A DNA stretch of 32,000 bases. Origin: Candidatus Nanopusillus acidilobi. Lineage in GTDB: Archaea > Nanobdellota > Nanobdellia > Nanobdellales > Nanobdellaceae. Positions 2 through 30,621 of this stretch are shown piece by piece. A model generated the notes under the pieces. The model ran no database searches and was not told the origin of the DNA. It saw nothing but the letters and a program-made list of their open reading frames with translations. The stretch is from positions 573,888 to 605,887 of the forward strand of contig CP010514.1 of assembly GCA_001552015.1 (NCBI GenBank). The letters are read 5' to 3'. The translations under genes were made by a program, and so were the position numbers. How positions within the stretch are numbered: the first letter of the stretch is position 1; each line of letters begins with the position of its first letter.

Positions 2-322
2 GTAAAATTAGAAAATTTATTAAATGAATTAGATAGATTAATTATTGAATATGACAAAGAATTGAAAGAAAGAGCAAGAAAATATTTTGAGAATAAAATA
101 TTAAAATTAGATAATTTAAAAGATCTAGAAAATAATTTAGATAAAAATGTAGCATTTAAAGTTCCTTTCTGTATGAGAGAAGAATGCGCAAAAAATATTA
201 AAGAAAAATATTCATTAGAAGTAAGAGGAACTGATATTATACCAGAAGATTCGAAAAATAAAAAATGTATATTTTGTAATAATGATGCAAAATATTATGT
301 ATATATAGGAAAAAGCTATTAG
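2..322 (+). CDS. proS: Prolyl-tRNA synthetase, C-terminal end (partial, runs off the left edge)
   Basis: The frame is open from base 2. The tail ...VPFCMREECAKNIKEKYSLEVRGTDIIPEDSKNKKCIFCNNDAKYYVYIGKSY has the Cys-rich C-terminal Zn domain and the terminal Tyr typical of archaeal/eukaryotic-type ProRS. Confidence 0.85.
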   Translation, partial: VKLENLLNELDRLIIEYDKELKERARKYFENKILKLDNLKDLENNLDKNVAFKVPFCMREECAKNIKEKYSLEVRGTDIIPEDSKNKKCIFCNNDAKYYVYIGKSY

Positions 323-323
323 T

Positions 324-554
324 GTGGCCGTAGGCTGCTTTTAGTATATATTCTTCTAAGCGGACAAGCCTTGTACCGCCAGGACATACTTCTCAAGGTG
401 CATATACCCTCTCCAAGTTTACCCGGAGTTGCCTCCAGGTATTAACCATTCATCTTCATCGGATATATGTCCGTGATTTCTAGTTATGTAGCCAGGGGTT
501 TCCCCCTCCAATTCCTCGGTGGCTTTATCGGTAAGCAGACCTTCCTACGGCCAC
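324..554 (-). ncRNA. 231-nt G+C-rich structured RNA; candidate strongly reduced RNase P RNA (class uncertain)
   Basis: An 11-bp terminal helix (GUGGCCGUAGG / CCUACGGCCAC) is extended by CUGCUU/AAGCAG. Two GNRA-tetraloop hairpins exist only on the minus strand: GGGG-GAAA-CCCC (loop at 499-502) and CCUGGAG-GCAA-CUCCGGG (loop at 429-432). Minus-strand motifs are GAGGAA (517-512), AGAUGAAUG (455-447) and AA-CUCCGG. G+C is far above the flanking sequence, and T-tracts flank the element. Confidence 0.7.
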
Positions 555-737
555 TTTTCTTTTTTATATATTTCTTATAACTATATAAATTATGCCTGAC
601 CAAATGCCTCTATTTACATACCTTGGATTATATAAGTTTGGAAAGGAAAAATCAAAAATAAAATTAAATAGAAATAAAATAATAATATTTATAATTATTT
701 TCGCGGCTCTAGTATATATTGCAAATATTTATATATC

Positions 738-1190
738 ATGTCTAATTTAGAAGAAGATTTAGAATATAATAGAAGATATAAGGAAGTCTTACATATATTT
801 AATGTTTCATTAAAAAATAATAAAGGATTAGAGACTGTTAGAAGTTTTATAAAAGCAGTTATTGAATATTATGATTATGCAATTGAATTATATTTTAAGA
901 AATTATATGAAAATAAAATGATTGATGAAATTCCAGACAGTCCAATTAAAAGATATAGAAAAATAATTGAAATTACAAAGGATAAAGAACTTGAAGAATC
1001 ATTAAAATATTATAAACTATTAAAAATTGCTTTAAATTCTGATGCAAGGATAATGAATGAATATAGAAAAAGTATGGTTATAAAATTTAGGACATTGAGC
1101 GGGGAAGAATTTGAAATAAATATAAAAACATTAAAAGATATTGCAGAATCTGTTAAAAAATTTTCTACAATTATTAGTAAATATATATAA
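738..1190 (+). CDS. Hypothetical helical protein, translationally coupled to the downstream MinD/ParA-like ATPase
   Basis: 150-aa ORF with host-like codon usage. Its stop overlaps the next ATG (TAATG at 1188-1192). I recognise no family motif. Confidence 0.6.
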   Translation: MSNLEEDLEYNRRYKEVLHIFNVSLKNNKGLETVRSFIKAVIEYYDYAIELYFKKLYENKMIDEIPDSPIKRYRKIIEITKDKELEESLKYYKLLKIALNSDARIMNEYRKSMVIKFRTLSGEEFEINIKTLKDIAESVKKFSTIISKYI

Positions 1191-4237: not shown

Positions 4238-5221
4238 ATGATAAAAGAAGGATATCCAATATTTGATATAGATAAAATTATGGAAAATAAAAAAGAATAT
4301 TCTGAGATATTATCAAAGCTAACTGAATATGATGAAAAAAGAATAAGAGAGGATAAGGATTATAGATTTAATAAAGAATTTAAGAAATCATTGAATAAAT
4401 TAAAGGAAATATTAACTAGTGAAGGATATATAGATGAAAATGGAGAATTAACTGAGAAATCTTTAATTGAATATTCTAAATATTTAATAGGAAATATAGA
4501 AAAGGAAATCGAAGGGATATTTGAATATGGAAAATATTTATCAAATTATATTGGAAATGATGAGGAATTTTATAATAAATATTTTAGTATAGGAGATAAA
4601 TATAATAAAATTGATATAAAAGAAACAATAAGAAATTATATAAAGAATAAAGAAGTTACAAGATTTGTTGTTAATGTTAAAAGAGAAAATAAAGGTGGTA
4701 AATATATAATTCTATTAGATGTATCTGGAAGTATGATTGGGGAAAAAATATTTGAAGCAAAAAAAGCTTTAATATTATTAATATCAAAGATATTAGAAGA
4801 TAATAATCTTTTAGATATAATATTATTTAATGATAAGATTGTTAAAGAATATGATAATGTTAGAGGATTAAAGGATATAATAGATATATTAAAAATTATA
4901 CCAAATGGAAGCACAGATATTGCCTTAGCATTTAATTATTTATTAAATAAAGAAGAAAATGGACATATAATATTAATAACCGATGCATTACCAACAAAGG
5001 GAAAAAATCCTGTAGAAAGAACTTTAAAGTTAGCTAAAGAATTAAGCCAATATTATTATATATCAATAATTGGAATACAATTAAATGATGAAGGAGAAAA
5101 AATTGCAAAGGAAATAGTAAAATATGGAAGAGGAAGATTATTTATTTCTAAAGATATAAAAGATTTGAAAAAACTATTATTATTAGAATACGAAATATCT
5201 AGACAACAGATGATAAAATAA
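4238..5221 (+). CDS. von Willebrand factor A (VWA) domain protein, partner of the AAA+ ATPase
   Basis: MIDAS motif ILLDVSGSM plus downstream GSTDI and ILITDALP. The frame is already open from 4130 without an ATG. Confidence 0.8.
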   Translation: MIKEGYPIFDIDKIMENKKEYSEILSKLTEYDEKRIREDKDYRFNKEFKKSLNKLKEILTSEGYIDENGELTEKSLIEYSKYLIGNIEKEIEGIFEYGKYLSNYIGNDEEFYNKYFSIGDKYNKIDIKETIRNYIKNKEVTRFVVNVKRENKGGKYIILLDVSGSMIGEKIFEAKKALILLISKILEDNNLLDIILFNDKIVKEYDNVRGLKDIIDILKIIPNGSTDIALAFNYLLNKEENGHIILITDALPTKGKNPVERTLKLAKELSQYYYISIIGIQLNDEGEKIAKEIVKYGRGRLFISKDIKDLKKLLLLEYEISRQQMIK

Positions 5222-5756
5222 TTTCTTCAGGTTTATTTTCCCCTATATATTTCTTATATTTTCCTGATAATTTCTTTCTTGCAATATCTAGATAGAAACT
5301 TATTCTGTTTGTAAATTCTGGTTTATTGTAATATATTGATAAAATAATATCTTTATAGAATACTTGAGCAGCTCTTGTATATGGTTTTCCAAATGCATGT
5401 CTCATTCCTTGTGAAATTCTATCTGCACCTGCACCATATACCAATGCATGTTCTCTTACAACATGATGAGGGTATTTTCTTACAATAAATAAAAATTCTT
5501 TTACTTCATTTTCTAAATATTTTAATATATTGGTTCTTACAGCTTCTAAGGAATAATCAGATACCTGAACATTATGTAATGCAATTAAATGAGCAGCATA
5601 TTTCCATTGATCCTTTGGTATGTTTATCATTCCCATAATCTGCATCCTTAATTTTGGTACTGGAGCACCTGGAATTTTATTATATGATTTACTATATGAA
5701 AATCTTGTATATGGTCTTTCTATTTCCTTAAATATTCTCCAGGGTCTCTTTGCCAT
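5199..5756 (-). CDS. rpl10e: Ribosomal protein uL16 (L10e)
   Basis: MAKRPWRIFKEIERPYTR... and GAGADRISQGMRHAFGKPYTRAAQV match archaeal L10e. Confidence 0.93.
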   Translation of the reverse strand: MAKRPWRIFKEIERPYTRFSYSKSYNKIPGAPVPKLRMQIMGMINIPKDQWKYAAHLIALHNVQVSDYSLEAVRTNILKYLENEVKEFLFIVRKYPHHVVREHALVYGAGADRISQGMRHAFGKPYTRAAQVFYKDIILSIYYNKPEFTNRISFYLDIARKKLSGKYKKYIGENKPEEIILSSVV

Positions 5757-5757
5757 T

Positions 5758-6237
5758 TTATATCATTTTCTTTAATAATATATTTATATCTTTTCCATAG
5801 TACCCATATGCACCACCCTGACTATATGGAACTTTTATACCTCTTCTTGGATAACCCTTTGATGGAGTTTTTAGTCTAAATATATTTTTTATTTTTGGTA
5901 TTGAATCTAAATCTATTTCATTATTTAATAATTTTTCAACAAATGTATCAATATCCATATTTAATGTTTGCTTAATATAATCTTCAGTTAATCTTTTATT
6001 TCCTTCCAATCTTCCTCTCTTTAATAATAATTCCTTTAATGTTTCCTTATCTATTTCCCCCCATGCAACCCATGGTTCTACTTTTTTTATCATTCCTCTT
6101 ATATCTTTTGTATCCTTCATTATTACTGCATAATTATTTCTTCTTAATCTTAACAAATATAATGTATCTTTTATTTCTTTATTTGCCTTAACAGTTCCTT
6201 TTATCCTTACAATTGCTAATAATCCCATTTTATACAA
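5758..6237 (-). CDS. rpl30p: Ribosomal protein uL30
   Basis: LAIVRIKGTVKANKEIKDTLYLLRLRRNNYAVIM is the L30/L7 signature. It lies directly downstream of uS5. Confidence 0.9.
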   Translation of the reverse strand: MYKMGLLAIVRIKGTVKANKEIKDTLYLLRLRRNNYAVIMKDTKDIRGMIKKVEPWVAWGEIDKETLKELLLKRGRLEGNKRLTEDYIKQTLNMDIDTFVEKLLNNEIDLDSIPKIKNIFRLKTPSKGYPRRGIKVPYSQGGAYGYYGKDINILLKKMI

Positions 6238-6988
6238 ATCCTATCTTTAATCCTGAATATTTGGCATATTCCTCTTTAATTCTATATCCTACTGTTTTTC
6301 TTAATGCATTATAAACTGCCATTGCAAAATTATATCTTTTTCTAGTTTGTCCAAAAGATTTCATCCATAGATCTTTTATACCAGCTAATCTAAATATCTT
6401 TTTCATTTCTTCAGGTGCTACCAATCCAACTCCTCTTGGAGCTGGTAATAATACAACTCTTACAGAACCAAAAGATCCTTCAACTTTAAATGGTAAAGAA
6501 TGGGGAGTTTTAAATGCACATTCCCATGATCCACAACCTCTTGCAATCGGTATAATATTCAATTTTGCATTTCTTAACGCTTTTTCCATACATAAAGCAA
6601 TATCAGAAGACTTTCCAATCCCTACTCCAACATATCCATTTTCATTTCCAACAACAGCAACAGAAACCCATGATGTTTTATTACCTTCAGCAGTTTTTCT
6701 TTGAACCATTTTTACAAATTTTGGCCTTCTATATTTACCTTTAGACAATGATAATCTAATATATTCATATTTTAAATCTGGTATTAATGCATCTACAATT
6801 TCTGGTTCTAATATTTTATATCCATTTTTAAATACTTGCTCAATTGAATTTATTTTTCCTTCCTTTACCAATTTACCAAGATTTGTTTTTGGATTCCAAG
6901 ATTCTATATTAAACTTTTGCGATCCTATTTTTTCTAAAGCCTCCTGTTCCTTTTTTACTTCTTCAGCTTCTTTTTGTTCTTCTACCAT
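6230..6988 (-). CDS. rps5p: Ribosomal protein uS5
   Basis: The dsRBD and S5 C-terminal domain are present: VAVVGNENGYVGVGIGKS...ALRNAKLNIIPI. Confidence 0.95.
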   Translation of the reverse strand: MVEEQKEAEEVKKEQEALEKIGSQKFNIESWNPKTNLGKLVKEGKINSIEQVFKNGYKILEPEIVDALIPDLKYEYIRLSLSKGKYRRPKFVKMVQRKTAEGNKTSWVSVAVVGNENGYVGVGIGKSSDIALCMEKALRNAKLNIIPIARGCGSWECAFKTPHSLPFKVEGSFGSVRVVLLPAPRGVGLVAPEEMKKIFRLAGIKDLWMKSFGQTRKRYNFAMAVYNALRKTVGYRIKEEYAKYSGLKIGFV

Positions 6989-9759: not shown

Positions 9760-10206
9760 ATGGTCGCTCATAGAAAGAAAAAATATAGGAAATATCTTGG
9801 ACAAAGATATGCTAGAAGGGGATATAATGATAGAAATAGAGGTAGAGGAAATAAGGGTGGTGCAGGTTTCTCTGGATGGAGATTTAAGAAACAAAAATAC
9901 ATTAAATTAATTAAGGAATATCCGGAAAAATTTGAAGATAAAAAAGGATTTACAAGTATTAAATATAATGTTGAAAAATCTATAATTAATTTGGGAGATA
10001 TAGAAGAATATTTTGATTATTTATTATCAGAAGGAATAATAAAAAATGAGGGAGAATATTATACAATAGATTTAGATGAAATAGGCGTTGATAAATTATT
10101 AGGAGCTGGAAGAATTAGCAAAAAAATGAAAATATATGTAAGAGAAGCTTCAGAAGGAGCAATAGAAAAGGTTAAAAACATCGGTGGGGAGGTTATAATT
10201 AAATAA
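9760..10206 (+). CDS. rpl15p: Ribosomal protein uL15
   Basis: The basic N-terminus RGRGNKGGAGFSG and the C-terminal KLLGAGRISKKMKIYV match uL15. Confidence 0.9.
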   Translation: MVAHRKKKYRKYLGQRYARRGYNDRNRGRGNKGGAGFSGWRFKKQKYIKLIKEYPEKFEDKKGFTSIKYNVEKSIINLGDIEEYFDYLLSEGIIKNEGEYYTIDLDEIGVDKLLGAGRISKKMKIYVREASEGAIEKVKNIGGEVIIK

Positions 10207-10676
10207 TGGACCTATCATTACAAAAAAGATTAGCATCTGAAATCCTTGGTGTTGGAAAAGATAGAATATGGATAGATCCGAATAAAATACAGGATGTATC
10301 TAAAGCTTTAAGTAGATCTGATATTTTAGATTTAATTGATAAAGGAATAATAAGAGTAAAAAATGTTAAAGGTCAATCTAGAACATGGGCAAATTATATT
10401 AAGGAACAGAAGAAAAAGGGAAGAAGAAGAGGAGCAGGATCTAGAAAAGGAGGTAGAAAAGCTAGATTAGACAAAAAAGAAAATTGGATGAAAAGAATAA
10501 GAGCAATAAGAAAGTTATTAAGAGAATTGAAAGAGAAAAATATAATTGATAAAAAGTTATATAGGGAGTTATATAAAAAAGCTAAAAGTAATGAGTTTAA
10601 GAGCAAAAGAGCTATTTTAATTTATCTTAAGGATTTAGGAATATTAAAGAATGAAAAAGAAGTTTTAAATAAATAG
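10206..10676 (+). CDS. rpl19e: Ribosomal protein eL19
   Basis: LQKRLASEILGVGKDRIWIDPNK is the L19e signature. The start overlaps the uL15 stop (TAATG). Confidence 0.93.
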   Translation: MDLSLQKRLASEILGVGKDRIWIDPNKIQDVSKALSRSDILDLIDKGIIRVKNVKGQSRTWANYIKEQKKKGRRRGAGSRKGGRKARLDKKENWMKRIRAIRKLLRELKEKNIIDKKLYRELYKKAKSNEFKSKRAILIYLKDLGILKNEKEVLNK

Positions 10677-11038: not shown

Positions 11039-11113
11039 TGCCCCCACCGGGATTTGAACCCGGGTCTCGGGGATGAGGACCCCGTATCCTGGACCTGACT
11101 AGACGACGGGGGC
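11039..11113 (-). tRNA. tRNA-Glu (nominal anticodon CUC), no encoded CCA
   Basis: The minus strand GCCCCCG-UC-GUCU...GGAU-A-CGGGG-UCCUCAU-CCCCG-AGAC-CCGGG-UUCAAAU-CCCGG-UGGGGGC-A folds as a cloverleaf. The discriminator A fits Glu. Loop position 33 is C rather than U. Confidence 0.85.
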
Positions 11114-11397
11114 TATGGATTATTTAATATATATTCAGAATTTTGAGTTATAACTATTATATTTGTTCCATTATCATAACATATCATATTCTCTTCTAAA
11201 CAAATATTGTAATATGTTTGATTTATAGTAGAAGAATAATTTGGATATAATAATAATTTAACATAAAAATCTTCTGCAATATATTTACCAATATTTGGTT
11301 GATAATAGAAATTATTTTGTAAATTTGAAATAAAAAATAATGTAATAAATAATATTAAAACTAAATATAATAAAATAAATTGGGATTTCATTTCCAA
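11113..11397 (-). CDS. Small secreted/membrane protein with an N-terminal hydrophobic helix (pilin-like), third gene of a three-gene operon
   Basis: MEMKSQFILLYLVLILFITLFFI is followed by an Asn/Tyr-rich domain with NYS, NQT and NGT sequons. It overlaps the upstream ORF by 10 nt. Confidence 0.5.
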   Translation of the reverse strand: MEMKSQFILLYLVLILFITLFFISNLQNNFYYQPNIGKYIAEDFYVKLLLYPNYSSTINQTYYNICLEENMICYDNGTNIIVITQNSEYILNNP

Positions 11398-11732
11398 TAT
11401 ATATCTACATAATCTACTGAGCCATTAATAATATAAAAAGTTTCAATTCCCTGTTCAGATTCATTTAAATTCGTATTATTAAATGCAACTTGTCCATTTA
11501 TTTCAACATAATAATATGGTAAAATATTTGTAACAATTTGATATAAACTACTGTTTAGCTGTTGTGTATTATTTAGATACATATAATTTATTGATATTAA
11601 TGATGCATATAGATCTTCTTTATTATACCCTCTAATATAGAAATTACTATAATATGTTGAAGTTAAAATAAAATATAAAACAATTATTACAACTACTAAT
11701 TCAATAAATATTGATATACTAAAAGATTTCAT
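11388..11732 (-). CDS. Type-IV-pilin-like small protein (class III signal peptide candidate)
   Basis: MKSFSISIFIELVVVIIVLYFIL has a short basic leader, then a hydrophobic helix containing Glu, as in prepilins. Five N-x-S/T sequons are present. Confidence 0.55.
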   Translation of the reverse strand: MKSFSISIFIELVVVIIVLYFILTSTYYSNFYIRGYNKEDLYASLISINYMYLNNTQQLNSSLYQIVTNILPYYYVEINGQVAFNNTNLNESEQGIETFYIINGSVDYVDIYWK

Positions 11733-12124
11733 TGAACTAATACACTAACCAAATATAATGAGCCATTATAATAGCAAACTCTATTAAATTCTATATAATT
11801 ATTTTGCATATTTGTTATATTATCATTACTAAATATATATTCTTGACTAGTATTACTTAAATTTTCATATATTATTTCATATGGAAAACTTGCTAAATTA
11901 TCCATTATACTTGGATTAAAATTATTTGATGTTAAATTACAAATATTGTCAGTATACTGTTCTGTAATTTCTTTAATCAAAACTCTTCCATCCATAAATT
12001 GATTATATATAATTTGATATTTTTCATTAATATTATAAATATAAGAAACTTTCTCCATTAATAATAATGTAATAAAAAATATTACTAAAACAATTACAAA
12101 TAGCTCAAAAAACCTATCTAGCAT
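11729..12124 (-). CDS. Type-IV-pilin-like small protein, first gene of the operon
   Basis: MLDRFFELFVIVLVIFFITLLL (FxEL + hydrophobic helix). Five sequons are present (NLT, NLS, NTS, NIT, NGS). It overlaps the next ORF at an ATGA junction. Confidence 0.5.
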   Translation of the reverse strand: MLDRFFELFVIVLVIFFITLLLMEKVSYIYNINEKYQIIYNQFMDGRVLIKEITEQYTDNICNLTSNNFNPSIMDNLASFPYEIIYENLSNTSQEYIFSNDNITNMQNNYIEFNRVCYYNGSLYLVSVLVQ

Positions 12125-12166: not shown

Positions 12167-12742
12167 ATGGATTCAAAACTGGTATCATTATTAAAAGAAA
12201 ATAAAAAAATTGTTACTGTATCGTCTAATAATTTACCAATATCTAGAAAAGATTCTGAAATGGTTGGTAGATTTATTAAATATTTAACAATACCATATGC
12301 AAAGAAATATTTAGAAATGGTTATTGAAAAGAAAGTTGCAGTTCCATATTATAGGTATCATAAAAAACAAGCGCATCATAAAAATGTAATGGGAAATGTT
12401 CCATATGGAAGATATCCAATTAAGGTTTCAAAATATTTTATTAAGCTATTAAATTCTTTAGAAAATAATGCAAAAAATATAGGATTAGATCCTAACAAGG
12501 TTGTAATTGTTTCTGTTAATGTTTCTAAGGGAAATAGGTTTCCTGGAAGGTTAAGGGTAGTAAAGATAAAAACAGGTCCTGGTGGAGTAAAGAGAACATT
12601 AATTGTTGCTCATAAGAAAACATCCCATATTAAAATATATGGATTATATTTAGAATCTCTAGATACATCTAAAAAATTGAAAAGAAAAAGCTTAAAACAA
12701 ATTGTTAAACAAATATTAGAAGAATGGCGTCAAAAAATATAG
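12167..12742 (+). CDS. rpl22p: Ribosomal protein uL22
   Basis: ISRKDSEMVGRFIKYLTIPYAKKYLEMVIEKKVAVPY matches archaeal L22 / eukaryotic L17. Confidence 0.9.
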   Translation: MDSKLVSLLKENKKIVTVSSNNLPISRKDSEMVGRFIKYLTIPYAKKYLEMVIEKKVAVPYYRYHKKQAHHKNVMGNVPYGRYPIKVSKYFIKLLNSLENNAKNIGLDPNKVVIVSVNVSKGNRFPGRLRVVKIKTGPGGVKRTLIVAHKKTSHIKIYGLYLESLDTSKKLKRKSLKQIVKQILEEWRQKI

Positions 12743-13401
12743 AAGAACTTATAAAAGAACAAAAAATACAGGCAATATTAGATAAAACTTTAAAAAATAG
12801 ATTTAAAGGTAAATTAATTAGTAAAGTTGAATATTTCAAGGTTTCAATGGGTACAAAGGTTATTATATATTGCGCAAGACCCAGATTAGTTCTGGGAAGA
12901 GCAAATGAAAATTTAGATGAAATTAAGAGAATTGTAGAAAATATTGCAAATGTTAAAGATCCAAATATAGAAGTTGTAGGAGTTGAAAATCCATTATTAG
13001 ATTCTGAAATTGTTGCAGATTTAATTGCATCTCAAATTGAAAGATATGGAAACAGAGCAATAAGAAGAATTATGCAAAGAGTAATGGAACAGGTAATGCA
13101 AGCTGGAGCTTTAGGTATTGAAGTAAGAGTTACTGGAAAAATAATTGGAGATAGAACATCTACAATAAGAGAACAAAAGGGATATATTAAAAAATCTGGA
13201 GAAGTAAACAAAATAATTGGAAAAAGTATAAGACATGCAAAATTACCTTCCGGAGTAATTGGAGTACAGGTTAGAATATTAAGACCAACAGACAAGTTAC
13301 CTGATAGAATAAAAATAAAAGATTTATCAGAAATAAAACCTGATGAATTAGAAAAGATAGACCCTTCTTTATTAGAAAAATTAACTAAACAAGGTCAATA
13401 A
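12724..13401 (+). CDS. rps3p: Ribosomal protein uS3
   Basis: KH domain and S3 C-terminal domain are present (GALGIEVRVTGKIIGDRTSTIREQKGYI). It follows uL22 as in the canonical operon. Confidence 0.93.
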   Translation: MASKNIEELIKEQKIQAILDKTLKNRFKGKLISKVEYFKVSMGTKVIIYCARPRLVLGRANENLDEIKRIVENIANVKDPNIEVVGVENPLLDSEIVADLIASQIERYGNRAIRRIMQRVMEQVMQAGALGIEVRVTGKIIGDRTSTIREQKGYIKKSGEVNKIIGKSIRHAKLPSGVIGVQVRILRPTDKLPDRIKIKDLSEIKPDELEKIDPSLLEKLTKQGQ

Positions 13402-24081: not shown

Positions 24082-24154
24082 GGTCCGGGTAGCCTAGTGG
24101 TAAGGCGTCGGGCTGTGGACCCGAAGATCGCGGGTTCGAATCCCGCCCCGGACC
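24082..24154 (+). tRNA. tRNA-His (GUG) with genomically encoded G-1
   Basis: G-1 is followed by GUCCGGG, which pairs with CCCGGAC, and G-1 sits opposite C73. The anticodon loop is CUGUGGA and the T arm is GCGGG-UUCGAAU-CCCGC. Confidence 0.95.
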
Positions 24155-25087
24155 CTAATGAGTTTCCCAGCCAACAGTTTTTTCAAATCCTAAAATTTTC
24201 TTAATATAACTTTCTAACAATAATTTTTCTTTATTTGTTATTTTACATAAATTATGGGCCATTTTTAATCCTCTTGGATAAGATTTCTGATCATAAATAA
24301 CTTCTTTTATTATTTCTTTAAATTTTTCTTTTCCAATTTTTTCCATTCCTTCTAATCTATATATATGATCATTATATCTTGCCCTAAAGTATATTAAATA
24401 TAAATTTTTGTTACAAAATGGACAATTTGGAATTTTTGAACCTAAAAATTCTTTTATTTGTTTTTCTTTAATATCTGTATAAAATATTTCTGATGGAAAA
24501 ATTCTCATCAATGTTAGTAAATCTGATCTACCTGTTTTTATTATATCTAAATTTAATATTCTCTTTGCAACTGCCAATAAATTTCCATTATTTATTAAAT
24601 ATTCAAAGTTTTCTAAAAATTCTTTTCTTCTATTTTCAACATTCTCATCATAAAAATTATACAGAAATTTTGAATATAATATGGAATCTGATATTATTGA
24701 TCCATCTATAAATATATATCTATCAGAATATTTTCTTGCCAATCTATATTCTAAATTTTTTGATAATAATTCTGAAATATCTTGAATGTCGAAATTTTCA
24801 TTATTCATCGATCTTATAAAAGATGTTTCGAAAAATTCTATATCTTCTATACTTTCATATATATCATCAGAAACAATTACTGCTCTTGAATATACATAAC
24901 TATAAGGTCCGACAATACCATTTACAAGAGAAGAGTCTATAAATCCATATTTTTTCTTTTCTTTTATCTCAATATTATCCAAATCTAATTTTTCAATATT
25001 AATTTTTTCTTCCTTATTATTTTCTTCATCTTTTTTTATTTGATTGATTTTTTGATTTATCTTTTCTAATAAATTTTTTGTTAACAT
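24155..25087 (-). CDS. nurA: NurA-domain 5'-3' nuclease (DNA end-resection)
   Basis: YGFIDSS and IFIDGSI are the two Asp-containing NurA motifs, followed by LAVAKR and a C-terminal MAHN. The stop codon abuts the 3' end of tRNA-His. Confidence 0.6.
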   Translation of the reverse strand: MLTKNLLEKINQKINQIKKDEENNKEEKINIEKLDLDNIEIKEKKKYGFIDSSLVNGIVGPYSYVYSRAVIVSDDIYESIEDIEFFETSFIRSMNNENFDIQDISELLSKNLEYRLARKYSDRYIFIDGSIISDSILYSKFLYNFYDENVENRRKEFLENFEYLINNGNLLAVAKRILNLDIIKTGRSDLLTLMRIFPSEIFYTDIKEKQIKEFLGSKIPNCPFCNKNLYLIYFRARYNDHIYRLEGMEKIGKEKFKEIIKEVIYDQKSYPRGLKMAHNLCKITNKEKLLLESYIKKILGFEKTVGWETH

Positions 25088-25123: not shown

Positions 25124-25183
25124 TCCCCCGCTTAGACGAACCAATATGAAAAGATGAGTATTGGTAACGATGGGCGGGGGACA
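25124..25183 (+). ncRNA. H/ACA-box guide-RNA-like hairpin (single hairpin plus ACA)
   Basis: A 7-bp G:C-rich lower stem (25125-25131 / 25174-25180) encloses a symmetric 9+9-nt internal loop. A 6-bp upper stem CCAAUA/UAUUGG carries the 12-nt apical loop UGAAAAGAUGAG, whose GA motifs are K-loop-like. ACA at 25181-25183 lies 16 nt after the upper stem. Confidence 0.5.
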
Positions 25184-25188
25184 TTTAT

Positions 25189-29049: not shown

Positions 29050-29646
29050 ATGGCTACAGGTCCTACTTACGTAGTAAAATTTAGAAGGAGAAGGGAAAAT
29101 ATTACAGATTATAGAAGGAGACTAAAGTTATTAAAATCAAAGAAACCAAGATTTGTTGTTAGAAGATTTTTAAATAATATATTAGCACAAATAACATTAT
29201 ATAATGAAAATGGAGATAAAACATTACTAACAGTCCATTCAAAAATATTAGAAAAGAAATATGGATGGAAAGGACATAGAGGAAATTTACCAACAGCATA
29301 TTTAGTCGGTTTATTAGCAGGTCTAGAAGCAAAGAAAAGAGGAATTGAAGAAGCAATATTAGATATTGGAAGATATAGATCTACAAAAGGAAATTCATTA
29401 TATGCTGCACTAAAAGGTGCAATTGATGCTGGATTAAAGATTCCATATAATGAGGAAATTTTACCTTCTGAAGATAGAATAAAAGGTGAACATATAAAAA
29501 ATTATGCATTAATGTTAAAAGAAAAAAATCCTGAAAAATATAATAAGCAATTTTCAAGATATTTAAAAAATGGATTAGAACCTGAAAAAATAGTAGAGCA
29601 TTTTGAAGAGGTAAAAAATAAAATATTAAAAGAATATGGCATCTGA
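29050..29646 (+). CDS. rpl18p: Ribosomal protein uL18 (L5e)
   Basis: [39 protein letters not shown] is a canonical archaeal L18 N-terminus. Confidence 0.93.
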
Positions 29647-29887
29647 TTGGAAAGATAGCTTAGATCCCGTGTTTAGAGATTTTATAAAATCATTAATAGA
29701 AGAAACAAAAAAGTATAAGGATGTATATGAAAATTCTGATAATCCATCAAAAGTACAAATGTGGATTGCACTAGGTATATTATATAGAAAATTACTATCT
29801 ATAGAAGGAAAATTATCAGAAATAGAATCTATAATAAATAATAAGGAATTAAGAGAAAAATTAGAAGAATATTTGAGAAAACTTTAA
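29636..29887 (+). CDS. Small (83 aa) helical hypothetical protein
   Basis: The ORF overlaps the uL18 3' end by 11 nt and the uS8 3' end by 4 nt (convergent). No family is recognised. Confidence 0.45.
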
Positions 29888-30258
29888 TAAACAACAGCAA
29901 CCAAAACCCCTCCTATTTTTTCTCTTTTACATTCTTCATTTGTTTTAACTCCTTTATTAGTAGATACTAATAATATTCCAAAACCACTTGCAGGTAAATA
30001 TCTTTTTTCGTACCTTTCTAATTCTCTATATGATACAGGAAACCTGGGATGAATTGCTTTTCCAAAATTAAAATATTCGGAAAACCTGGCAATTATCTTT
30101 TTCCCTTCAGTCTTATATTCTTCAACAAATCTATATTCCTTTAATTTTTCTAAAATATTCAATAATAATTTATTATAATAATTAAATTCTACATCTCTTC
30201 TCCCAATATTTATACAATTTGTGGCATGAGAAAAGAAATCATTAATTATATCTACCAT
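29884..30258 (-). CDS. rps8p: Ribosomal protein uS8
   Basis: ...[33 protein letters not shown] is the S8 C-terminal signature. Confidence 0.93.
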   Translation of the reverse strand: MVDIINDFFSHATNCINIGRRDVEFNYYNKLLLNILEKLKEYRFVEEYKTEGKKIIARFSEYFNFGKAIHPRFPVSYRELERYEKRYLPASGFGILLVSTNKGVKTNEECKREKIGGVLVAVVY

Positions 30259-30621
30259 TATTCTCCTAGAACTTTAAATCCTAATTCTTTTGCCATTTCT
30301 CTAAAGCATCTTCCGCATATGTAATATATTATATCTCCTAATAACTCTATCATGAGAACCGCATATCATACATCTTATACTTCCTTTTCCAAATTTTCTT
30401 TCCTTATTTTTAATTCCATATTCTTCTAATACTTTTATTAAACTTTTATTTTCACTTACGGCTTTTTGTATTAATTCTTGTATATTCTTAATCTTACCTT
30501 CTTTAATTAGTCTTCTTACTTCTTCCTTTATATATTTTGGTGCATTATTTTTGAGTATCTTTGCTAAAGTACCTGATTTGTTTTTCTGTAATTCTACTAA
30601 ATATGACCAATCATTTGGCAT
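30258..30621 (-). CDS. rps14p: Ribosomal protein uS14 (zinc-ribbon type) with a ~70-aa N-terminal extension and an internal single-base frameshift
   Basis: RKFGKGSIRCMICGSHDRVIRRYNI is followed in the annotated frame by LHMRKML*. The adjacent frame reads ICGRCFREMAKELGFKVLGE*, supplying the second CxxC and the S14 tail. It ends in TAATG overlapping the uS8 start. Confidence 0.8.

Follow-up and report, generated by a model that had tools for sequence, protein, structure and literature searches.

A G+C-rich island beside proS as a highly likely gene for a reduced RNase P RNA in a Nanopusillaceae archaeon

The locus and its conservation among relatives

The window, by which we mean the whole 32-kb stretch of DNA that was analysed, has a G+C content of 24%, and its longest G+C-rich stretch is an island at 320-567 with 46% G+C and a 50-nt maximum of 0.58. 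This composition scan agrees with the original prediction, which had placed a G+C island at 324-554. The minus strand of the island folds to -88.4 kcal/mol (z = -5.46), a value that 0 of 200 shuffles equalled or beat, and the plus strand folds to -71.4 kcal/mol (z = -2.9). The observation of a structured RNA of 231 nt at 554..324 on the minus strand is confirmed, and its ends are exactly the outermost base pairs of P1 (Table 1). The strings quoted in the original prediction were all found on the minus strand where it had located them: GUGGCCGUAGG (554-544) is complementary to CCUACGGCCAC (334-324) and CUGCUU to AAGCAG, GGGG-GAAA-CCCC lies at 506-495, CCUGGAG-GCAA-CUCCGGG at 439-422, GAGGAA at 517-512, and AGAUGAAUG at 455-447.

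Table 1. Coordinates of the RNA, its structural elements and the adjacent features in the window
Feature	Position	Strand	Remarks
Probable RNase P RNA gene	324..554	-	231 nt, first to last P1 pair; full-length RF00373 match and homologues
P1	554-548 with 330-324	-	5' strand GUGGCCG; 100% paired in 22 sequences; 3 of 7 pairs compensatory
Junction UAGGA (J3/4)	547-543	-	start of CR-I
CR-I	534..547	-	UAGGA, then P4 5' strand; aligned to consensus GAGGAAAgUCCcCC with high posterior
P4	542-534 with 339-332	-	AGG-U-CUGCU, bulged U at 539
P4 3' strand AGCAGCCU, part of CR-V	332..339	-	alignment columns 24:234 and 25:233 covary
P5	533-530 (UACC) with 377-374 (GGUA)	-	2 of 4 pairs compensatory; found de novo by RNAalifold
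Specificity domain	378..523	-	P7, P8, P9, P10/11, CR-II, P12, CR-III
P7	523-520 with 381-378	-	
P8	519-508	-	GGAA loop
P9	506-495	-	GAAA loop
P10/11	493-485 with 388-382	-	
CR-II	484-473	-	
P12	472-397	-	long; GCAA loop
GAUGAAGAUGAA, bulged strand of the double-K-turn-like motif in P12	449..460	-	partner GGAGA at 410-414
CR-III	396-389	-	
P15 stub hairpin	370-362	-	2 bp here, up to 6 bp in relatives
Single strand GCUUAGAAGAAUAUAUACUAAA	340..361	-	J15/2 fused to J2/4; nearly invariant
Putative TATA box UUUAUAUA	581..588	-	28-35 nt upstream of P1
Second TATA-like box	563-570	+	faces away, toward the 52-aa ORF
52-aa membrane ORF (MPDQMPLFTYLG...)	592-750	+	one hydrophobic segment; conserved, called in four relatives
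150-aa ORF (ORF150)	738-1190	+	

The proS stop codon and the 3' end of P1 are 1 nt apart, a U5 run comes next at 317-313, and the spacer between the RNase P RNA and the 52-aa ORF is just 37 nt. The element GGCAUAAUUUAUAUA occurs 27-41 nt upstream of P1 in 9 of the 11 loci checked and is shifted in one. This spacing suits an archaeal TATA box, which suggests that the element may function as a promoter, and the two opposed TATA-like boxes could serve two divergent genes.

ORF150 has no sequence match in Pfam or the PDB. In its AlphaFold model (pLDDT 89) helices predominate beside a small sheet, and the only structural matches are weak and HEPN-toxin-like (TM ~0.5, E>0.1). We rejected ORF150 as a hidden Pop5, since it has no sequence match and its model is not Pop5-like. 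A search of 5.8 billion protein sequences returned 14 relatives, of which all the named ones come from Nanopusillaceae; identity is 96% to a fragment from a Candidatus Nanopusillus acidilobi MAG and 54% to Nanobdella aerobiophila MJ1_0739. Farther along the plus strand, a 90-aa ORF at 1936-2208 (88-92 aa in relatives) aligns with no more than the first 58 positions of the 302-position diphthamide synthase profile; it is apparently the split DPH2 gene listed for Nst1 by Podar et al. (2013). Ribosomal protein genes usually found together in a single long operon occur here as small clusters dispersed over both strands (5199-6988, 9760-10676, 12167-13401 and 29050-30621), and include L22, S3, L15, L19e, L18, S5, L30, S8, an S14-like gene and L10e.

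The order proS, gap, ORF150 is conserved on the contigs of relatives, and the ORF150 gene adjoins the RNase P RNA gene wherever the flanks were examined. The gap holds a match to RF00373 on the strand opposite proS, with scores of 63.9 bits in Nanobdella, 85.6 bits in a Nanopusillaceae MAG, and 64.3 bits on a Logan contig where the match is cut at the contig end. All four loci with examined flanks keep the order of proS, the RNA and the same small gene. In the Nanobdella contig (L001, 1-794) and the Nanopusillaceae MAG (L003, 1-324), the 5' end of the 23S rRNA gene was observed just upstream of proS on the opposite strand, which puts the RNase P RNA ~2 kb from the rRNA locus in these two; the window stops before the corresponding position.

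Homologues were sought with a degenerate DNA pattern made from CR-I and the P9 hairpin, in species-representative genomes and then in metagenomes. The representative genomes yielded nine Nanopusillaceae loci and one chance match in Streptomyces. Two of the nine are the Nanobdella genome and the Nanopusillaceae MAG that had already been found through their flanks, and the others include both Nanobsidianus stetteri genomes and strain YN1. The metagenome scan added 12 close relatives; beyond such relatives, a scan with a relaxed pattern gave just chance matches and two ordinary bacterial RNase P RNAs. Together with the window, the set comprises 25 distinct sequences, so that 24 further homologues are available from Nanopusillaceae, among them Nanobsidianus stetteri Nst1, Nanobdella aerobiophila and strain YN1, at 65-98% identity to the window. 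The Nst1 copy (APJZ01000002.1) is 96.1% identical over 230 nt, equal in length, and likewise without P2 and P3. The most divergent lineage, at 65-72% identity, is represented by Logan contigs L004 and L006, which stop before the 3' end of the RNA. These two independent contigs come from related samples, and both stop at the same base in the P4 3' strand (...AAAAGCGGC).

Family identity and secondary structure

A cmscan of window positions 250-650 in E-value mode matched the minus strand at 558..320 to RF00373 over model positions 1-288, with 68.2 bits and E=5.4e-19. The archaeal type A/M model is the best match within the RNase P clan. The score falls below the curated gathering score of RF00373, which is 84 bits, because ~30 model positions corresponding to P2 and P3 are deleted and P15 is short. 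As a result, annotation at Rfam thresholds leaves the RNA unlabelled, and at gathering thresholds Rfam reports five tRNAs and nothing else in the whole window. The shortfall would be expected if some other structured RNA, such as SRP RNA or an sRNA, merely resembled RNase P RNA. However, RNase P is the sole meaningful match among 4227 Rfam families and spans the full model, the next-best match to 250-650 has E=0.28, and the homologue from the Nanopusillaceae MAG, at 85.6 bits, exceeds the gathering score. Archaeal SRP RNA gave no match at E<=10 in 250-650, nor at its gathering score across the window. The original prediction had named this Rfam comparison as a check, and archaeal RNase P was matched below its gathering score and SRP RNA was not matched. 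We therefore regard a look-alike RNA of another family as having a negligible chance of being correct.

Covariation was assessed by transferring the archaeal consensus helices onto the alignment of the 25 distinct sequences and counting pairs. Standard pairs occupy 99.3% of the 1537 pair cells, and compensatory changes on both sides are seen in 38 of the 63 pairs, values that 0 of 500 column shuffles reached. In a control in which the 3' partners were slid by 1-3 columns, pairing fell to 33-42%. RNAalifold independently recovered P5, P7, P8, P9, P10/11 and every part of P12, so that each helix of the specificity domain both covaries and is found de novo. In the terminal P1/P4 region RNAalifold went wrong, presumably because contig ends truncate three of the sequences, and that part of its output was not used.

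The alignment to RF00373 has high posterior support at CR-I, P5/P7, P8, P9, P10/11, CR-II, P12, CR-III, the segment CAAG...CGCUUAG and CR-V. The covariance-model alignment identifies UAGGAAGGUCUGC at 547-535 as CR-I and the 5' strand of P4. The segment CAAG...CGCUUAG corresponds to CR-IV and the J5/15 region (consensus GCAAG and CGCuuAG), and varies in the family at one base alone, the fifth of CGCUUAG, which is either U or A. Across the alignment CR-I to CR-V show little or no variation; GGAARGUC is invariant in 25 of 25 sequences, and AGAAAU and UGAGAA in the specificity domain are likewise invariant. Within P12, GAUGAAGAUGAA and GGAGA align to the conserved AuGAuGAU and GA segments of the model. 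This layout matches the double K-turn that binds L7Ae in P12 of type A and type M RNAs (PMC5499556), and by analogy L7Ae may bind the P12 K-turns of the window RNA.

Several elements of the archaeal consensus are missing. The alignment to RF00373 drops the P2 5' strand, the whole of P3 and the P2 3' strand, with the six 3' positions of P2 deleted by cmscan exactly at the segment 340..361. Helices P2 and P3, which belong to the universal RNase P RNA core (Chen & Pace), are truly absent, because zero nucleotides separate P1 from CR-I and J15/2 is joined straight to J2/4. L15, P16, P17 and P6 were likewise not found in the alignment to RF00373 or in the 25-sequence alignment. Since P6 is missing as well as P2 and P3, there is no pseudoknot and the fold is fully nested.

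We consider it highly likely that the island encodes the catalytic RNase P RNA subunit of an archaeon in the Nanopusillus/Nanobsidianus group of Nanopusillaceae. The full-length match to RF00373 and the covariation agree with the original prediction of an RNase P RNA on the minus strand, and its placement of the RNA in the Nanoarchaeum lineage also holds. Against this explanation stand the score of 68.2 against 84, the loss of P2 and P3 from the universal consensus, and the A before the G-U of CR-I, which is G in most members, as do the absence of RNase P protein genes from the 32-kb window and the failure to find Pop5 in Nst1 (PMC4919917).

The internal anatomy first proposed for the RNA fared differently. 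It comprised a P4 formed by UUGGAG and CUCCGG, AGAUGAAUG as J18/2, UUACC/GGUUAA as P2, a rearranged core and no S-domain. These strings do lie at the positions given for them, and the proposed helices pair in 88% of alignment cells. The pairings, however, show no covariation: 470 of 500 shuffles reach at least the same paired percentage for P4 and P2, and 498 of 500 reach at least the same covariation score. Moreover, the same nucleotides are fully used by the covarying helices P8, P12 and P5. GAGGAA is the GA of the P8 5' arm followed by the GGAA loop, with UUGG as the P8 3' arm; CUCCGG belongs to the distal P12 hairpin as its 3' arm; AGAUGAAUG is part of the bulged K-turn strand of P12, so that its match to E. 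coli M1 RNA is coincidental; and the UACC assigned to P2 pairs with GGUA to form P5. The covariance-model alignment places CR-I at 547-535, and the supposedly missing S-domain is present with P7, P8, P9, P10/11, P12, CR-II and CR-III. The description of the RNA as unusually small and without P3 stands, whereas the core is not rearranged but collinear with the archaeal consensus, with clean deletions. With these results, we give the anatomy as first drawn almost no credence, and the homology model is used below.

Two pairing registers compete near the base of P4. The original prediction had described a terminal helix of 11 bp, and such pairing is possible, since UAGG (547-544) can pair with CCUA (334-331) in the window and lengthen P1 to 11 bp; this helix, however, takes in what is actually the CR-I/P4 5' strand (547-535), and competes with the AGG/CCU register of P4 for the same CCU. 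In Nanobdella (U.U) and L003 (C.U) one pair of the extended register is disrupted; that register otherwise fits the sequences as well as the P4 register does. The P4 register is unbroken in all sequences, yet its three AGG/CCU pairs do not covary. Elsewhere in P4 two pairs do covary, with column pair 24:234 read as UA in 19 sequences and CG in 5, and 25:233 as GC in 22 and AU in 2. Thus P4 with its bulged U, formed by CR-I and CR-V and a hallmark of RF00373, is present, and an extended P1 is also possible. The comparison of sequences favours the P4 register over the extended P1, and both forms appear compatible with the data.

Relation to known RNase P RNAs

A reduced RNase P RNA of this kind is real and already published. 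Using Infernal, Podar et al. (2013) identified the Nst1 RNA and described it as shorter than type T and resistant to conventional folding (PMC3655853). A 2026 PNAS paper reported the deletion of P3 and P2 "within Nanoarchaeales (Nanopusillaceae)" (PMC12974513), and redrew the secondary structure of the N. stetteri RNA alongside the yeast mitochondrial Rpm1r, which is also without P2 and P3 (PMC12974513, SI Fig. S12). Because these two papers describe the Nanopusillaceae form, the window RNA is a further copy of a published RNA: it has the same length, the same loss of P2 and P3 and the same organism family, with no substantive difference. What is added here to the published Nst1 RNA is the set of covariation counts, the element map, the promoter element and the ambiguity of the P1/P4 register.

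Comparison with other reduced forms places the deletions in context. Type M RNAs (Methanococcales, M. jannaschii) share with the window RNA a P15 that is a simple hairpin, the absence of L15, P16, P17 and P6, and a double-K-turn-like motif in P12. In contrast, type M has P2 and P3, and hence the P2/P4 pseudoknot, whereas the window RNA has neither helix; conversely, type M is without P8, which the window RNA has. Type T is likewise a naturally shrunken archaeal RNase P RNA of ~200-230 nt that standard annotation missed, but its reduction runs the other way. In type T the catalytic domain is complete (P2, P3, P15-17/P6), and most of the S-domain has been lost along with Rpp21, so that the S-domain is one hairpin (RF02357). 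The window RNA combines a complete S-domain with a trimmed C-domain, which sets it apart from that type. The S. cerevisiae mitochondrial Rpm1r also has no P2 and no P3, though it is part of an active enzyme (PMC12974513). It differs from the window RNA in being organellar and dependent on an unrelated protein. Rpm1r also reportedly lacks S-domain helices that the window RNA retains, a point that Seif et al. are said to have made in 2003.

The RNA would provide a natural example of an RNase P that can do without the P2/P3 module and the P2/P4 pseudoknot as long as the S-domain and protein cofactors remain, a point already made in PMC12974513. If annotation misses the gene, the resulting gap could falsely imply that RNase P was lost in these nanoarchaea, as in N. 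equitans.

Holoenzyme, substrates and function

Pfam found no gene for Rpp21, Rpp29, Rpp30, Pop5 or L7Ae in the 32-kb window, where no Rpp29 gene follows S3, and comparison of three small unannotated ORFs (11113-12124) with PDB sequences brought no match. Nst1 encodes p21, p29 and p30 alongside its RNase P RNA (PMC3655853); Pop5 was not found in Nst1 (PMC4919917), and L7Ae is reported present. In M. jannaschii, Pop5 is seated on the P2/P3 junction and Rpp30 touches P2-P3. Because the platform for Pop5 is gone from the window RNA, a joint loss of Pop5 and P2/P3 is plausible, although we only infer it.

The conservation of the core and S-domain points to a functional RNase P RNA. In the mechanism that we propose, the minus strand would be transcribed from the TATA box ~30 nt upstream, and the RNA adopts a nested fold, shown by covariation, in which P1 stacks directly on P4. 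The P2-P3 module is deleted with J3/4 (UAGGA), J15/2 and J2/4 kept, P15 left as a stub and the whole specificity domain retained. By analogy with other RNase P enzymes, the tRNA elbow would be bound by the T-loop modules CR-II and CR-III and the catalytic Mg2+ by P4, its bulged U and the adjoining junction strands, and the 5' leader of the pre-tRNA would be cleaved off. Rpp21, Rpp29, Rpp30 and L7Ae are presumed to assist, with L7Ae seated on the P12 K-turns. The two registers described above also allow a more speculative idea, which we regard as rather unlikely: that in the Nanopusillus/Nanobsidianus group the RNA toggles between an inactive conformer with extended P1 and an active one with the bulged-U P4, and that the enzyme works without Pop5. 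If true, this Pop5-less enzyme would be a natural archaeal RNase P that is poor in protein and has a catalytic domain free of pseudoknots.

The tRNA genes of the window bear on whether such an enzyme is needed. A G+C-rich hairpin precedes tRNA-Ser on the plus strand (~25124-25180; -29.3 kcal/mol, z = -5.2), followed by ACA at 25181-25183, and tRNA-Ser starts at 25188, 4 nt after the ACA. The segment 25124-25187 has a 7-bp lower stem, an internal loop, a 6-bp upper stem and a loop with GAUGA, and in a 121-nt search it weakly matches the archaeal H/ACA RNA HgcG/Pab40 (20.8 bits, E=2e-4). It is probably an H/ACA guide RNA that is co-transcribed with tRNA-Ser, in which case the joint transcript would be a substrate for RNase P. 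The 4-nt spacing leaves no room for a promoter of tRNA-Ser itself, so that 5' processing should be needed.

These observations also bear on the possibility that the RNA is a decaying relic, in which tRNA cleavage has been lost and which is en route to the total loss seen in Nanoarchaeum equitans, perhaps with a scaffold or other role. Such decay would account for the loss of the universal P2 and P3, the absence of L15 and the failure to detect Pop5 in Nst1; Podar et al. (2013) themselves wrote of "partial degradation" (PMC3655853), and the sister lineage N. equitans lives without RNase P (PMC3491384). However, the remaining helices are kept by compensatory changes across lineages that are just 65-82% identical, CR-I to CR-V are invariant or nearly so, tRNA-Ser appears to require removal of its leader, and yeast mitochondrial Rpm1r is active despite its lack of P2 and P3 (PMC12974513). 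We therefore judge a relic very unlikely and retain the interpretation as a working RNase P RNA. CCA is encoded in 0 of the 5 tRNA genes of the window, which fits an RNase P RNA without the CCA-binding loop L15. One of these genes, tRNA-His at 24082-24155 (+), encodes a G at position -1, opposite the discriminator C.
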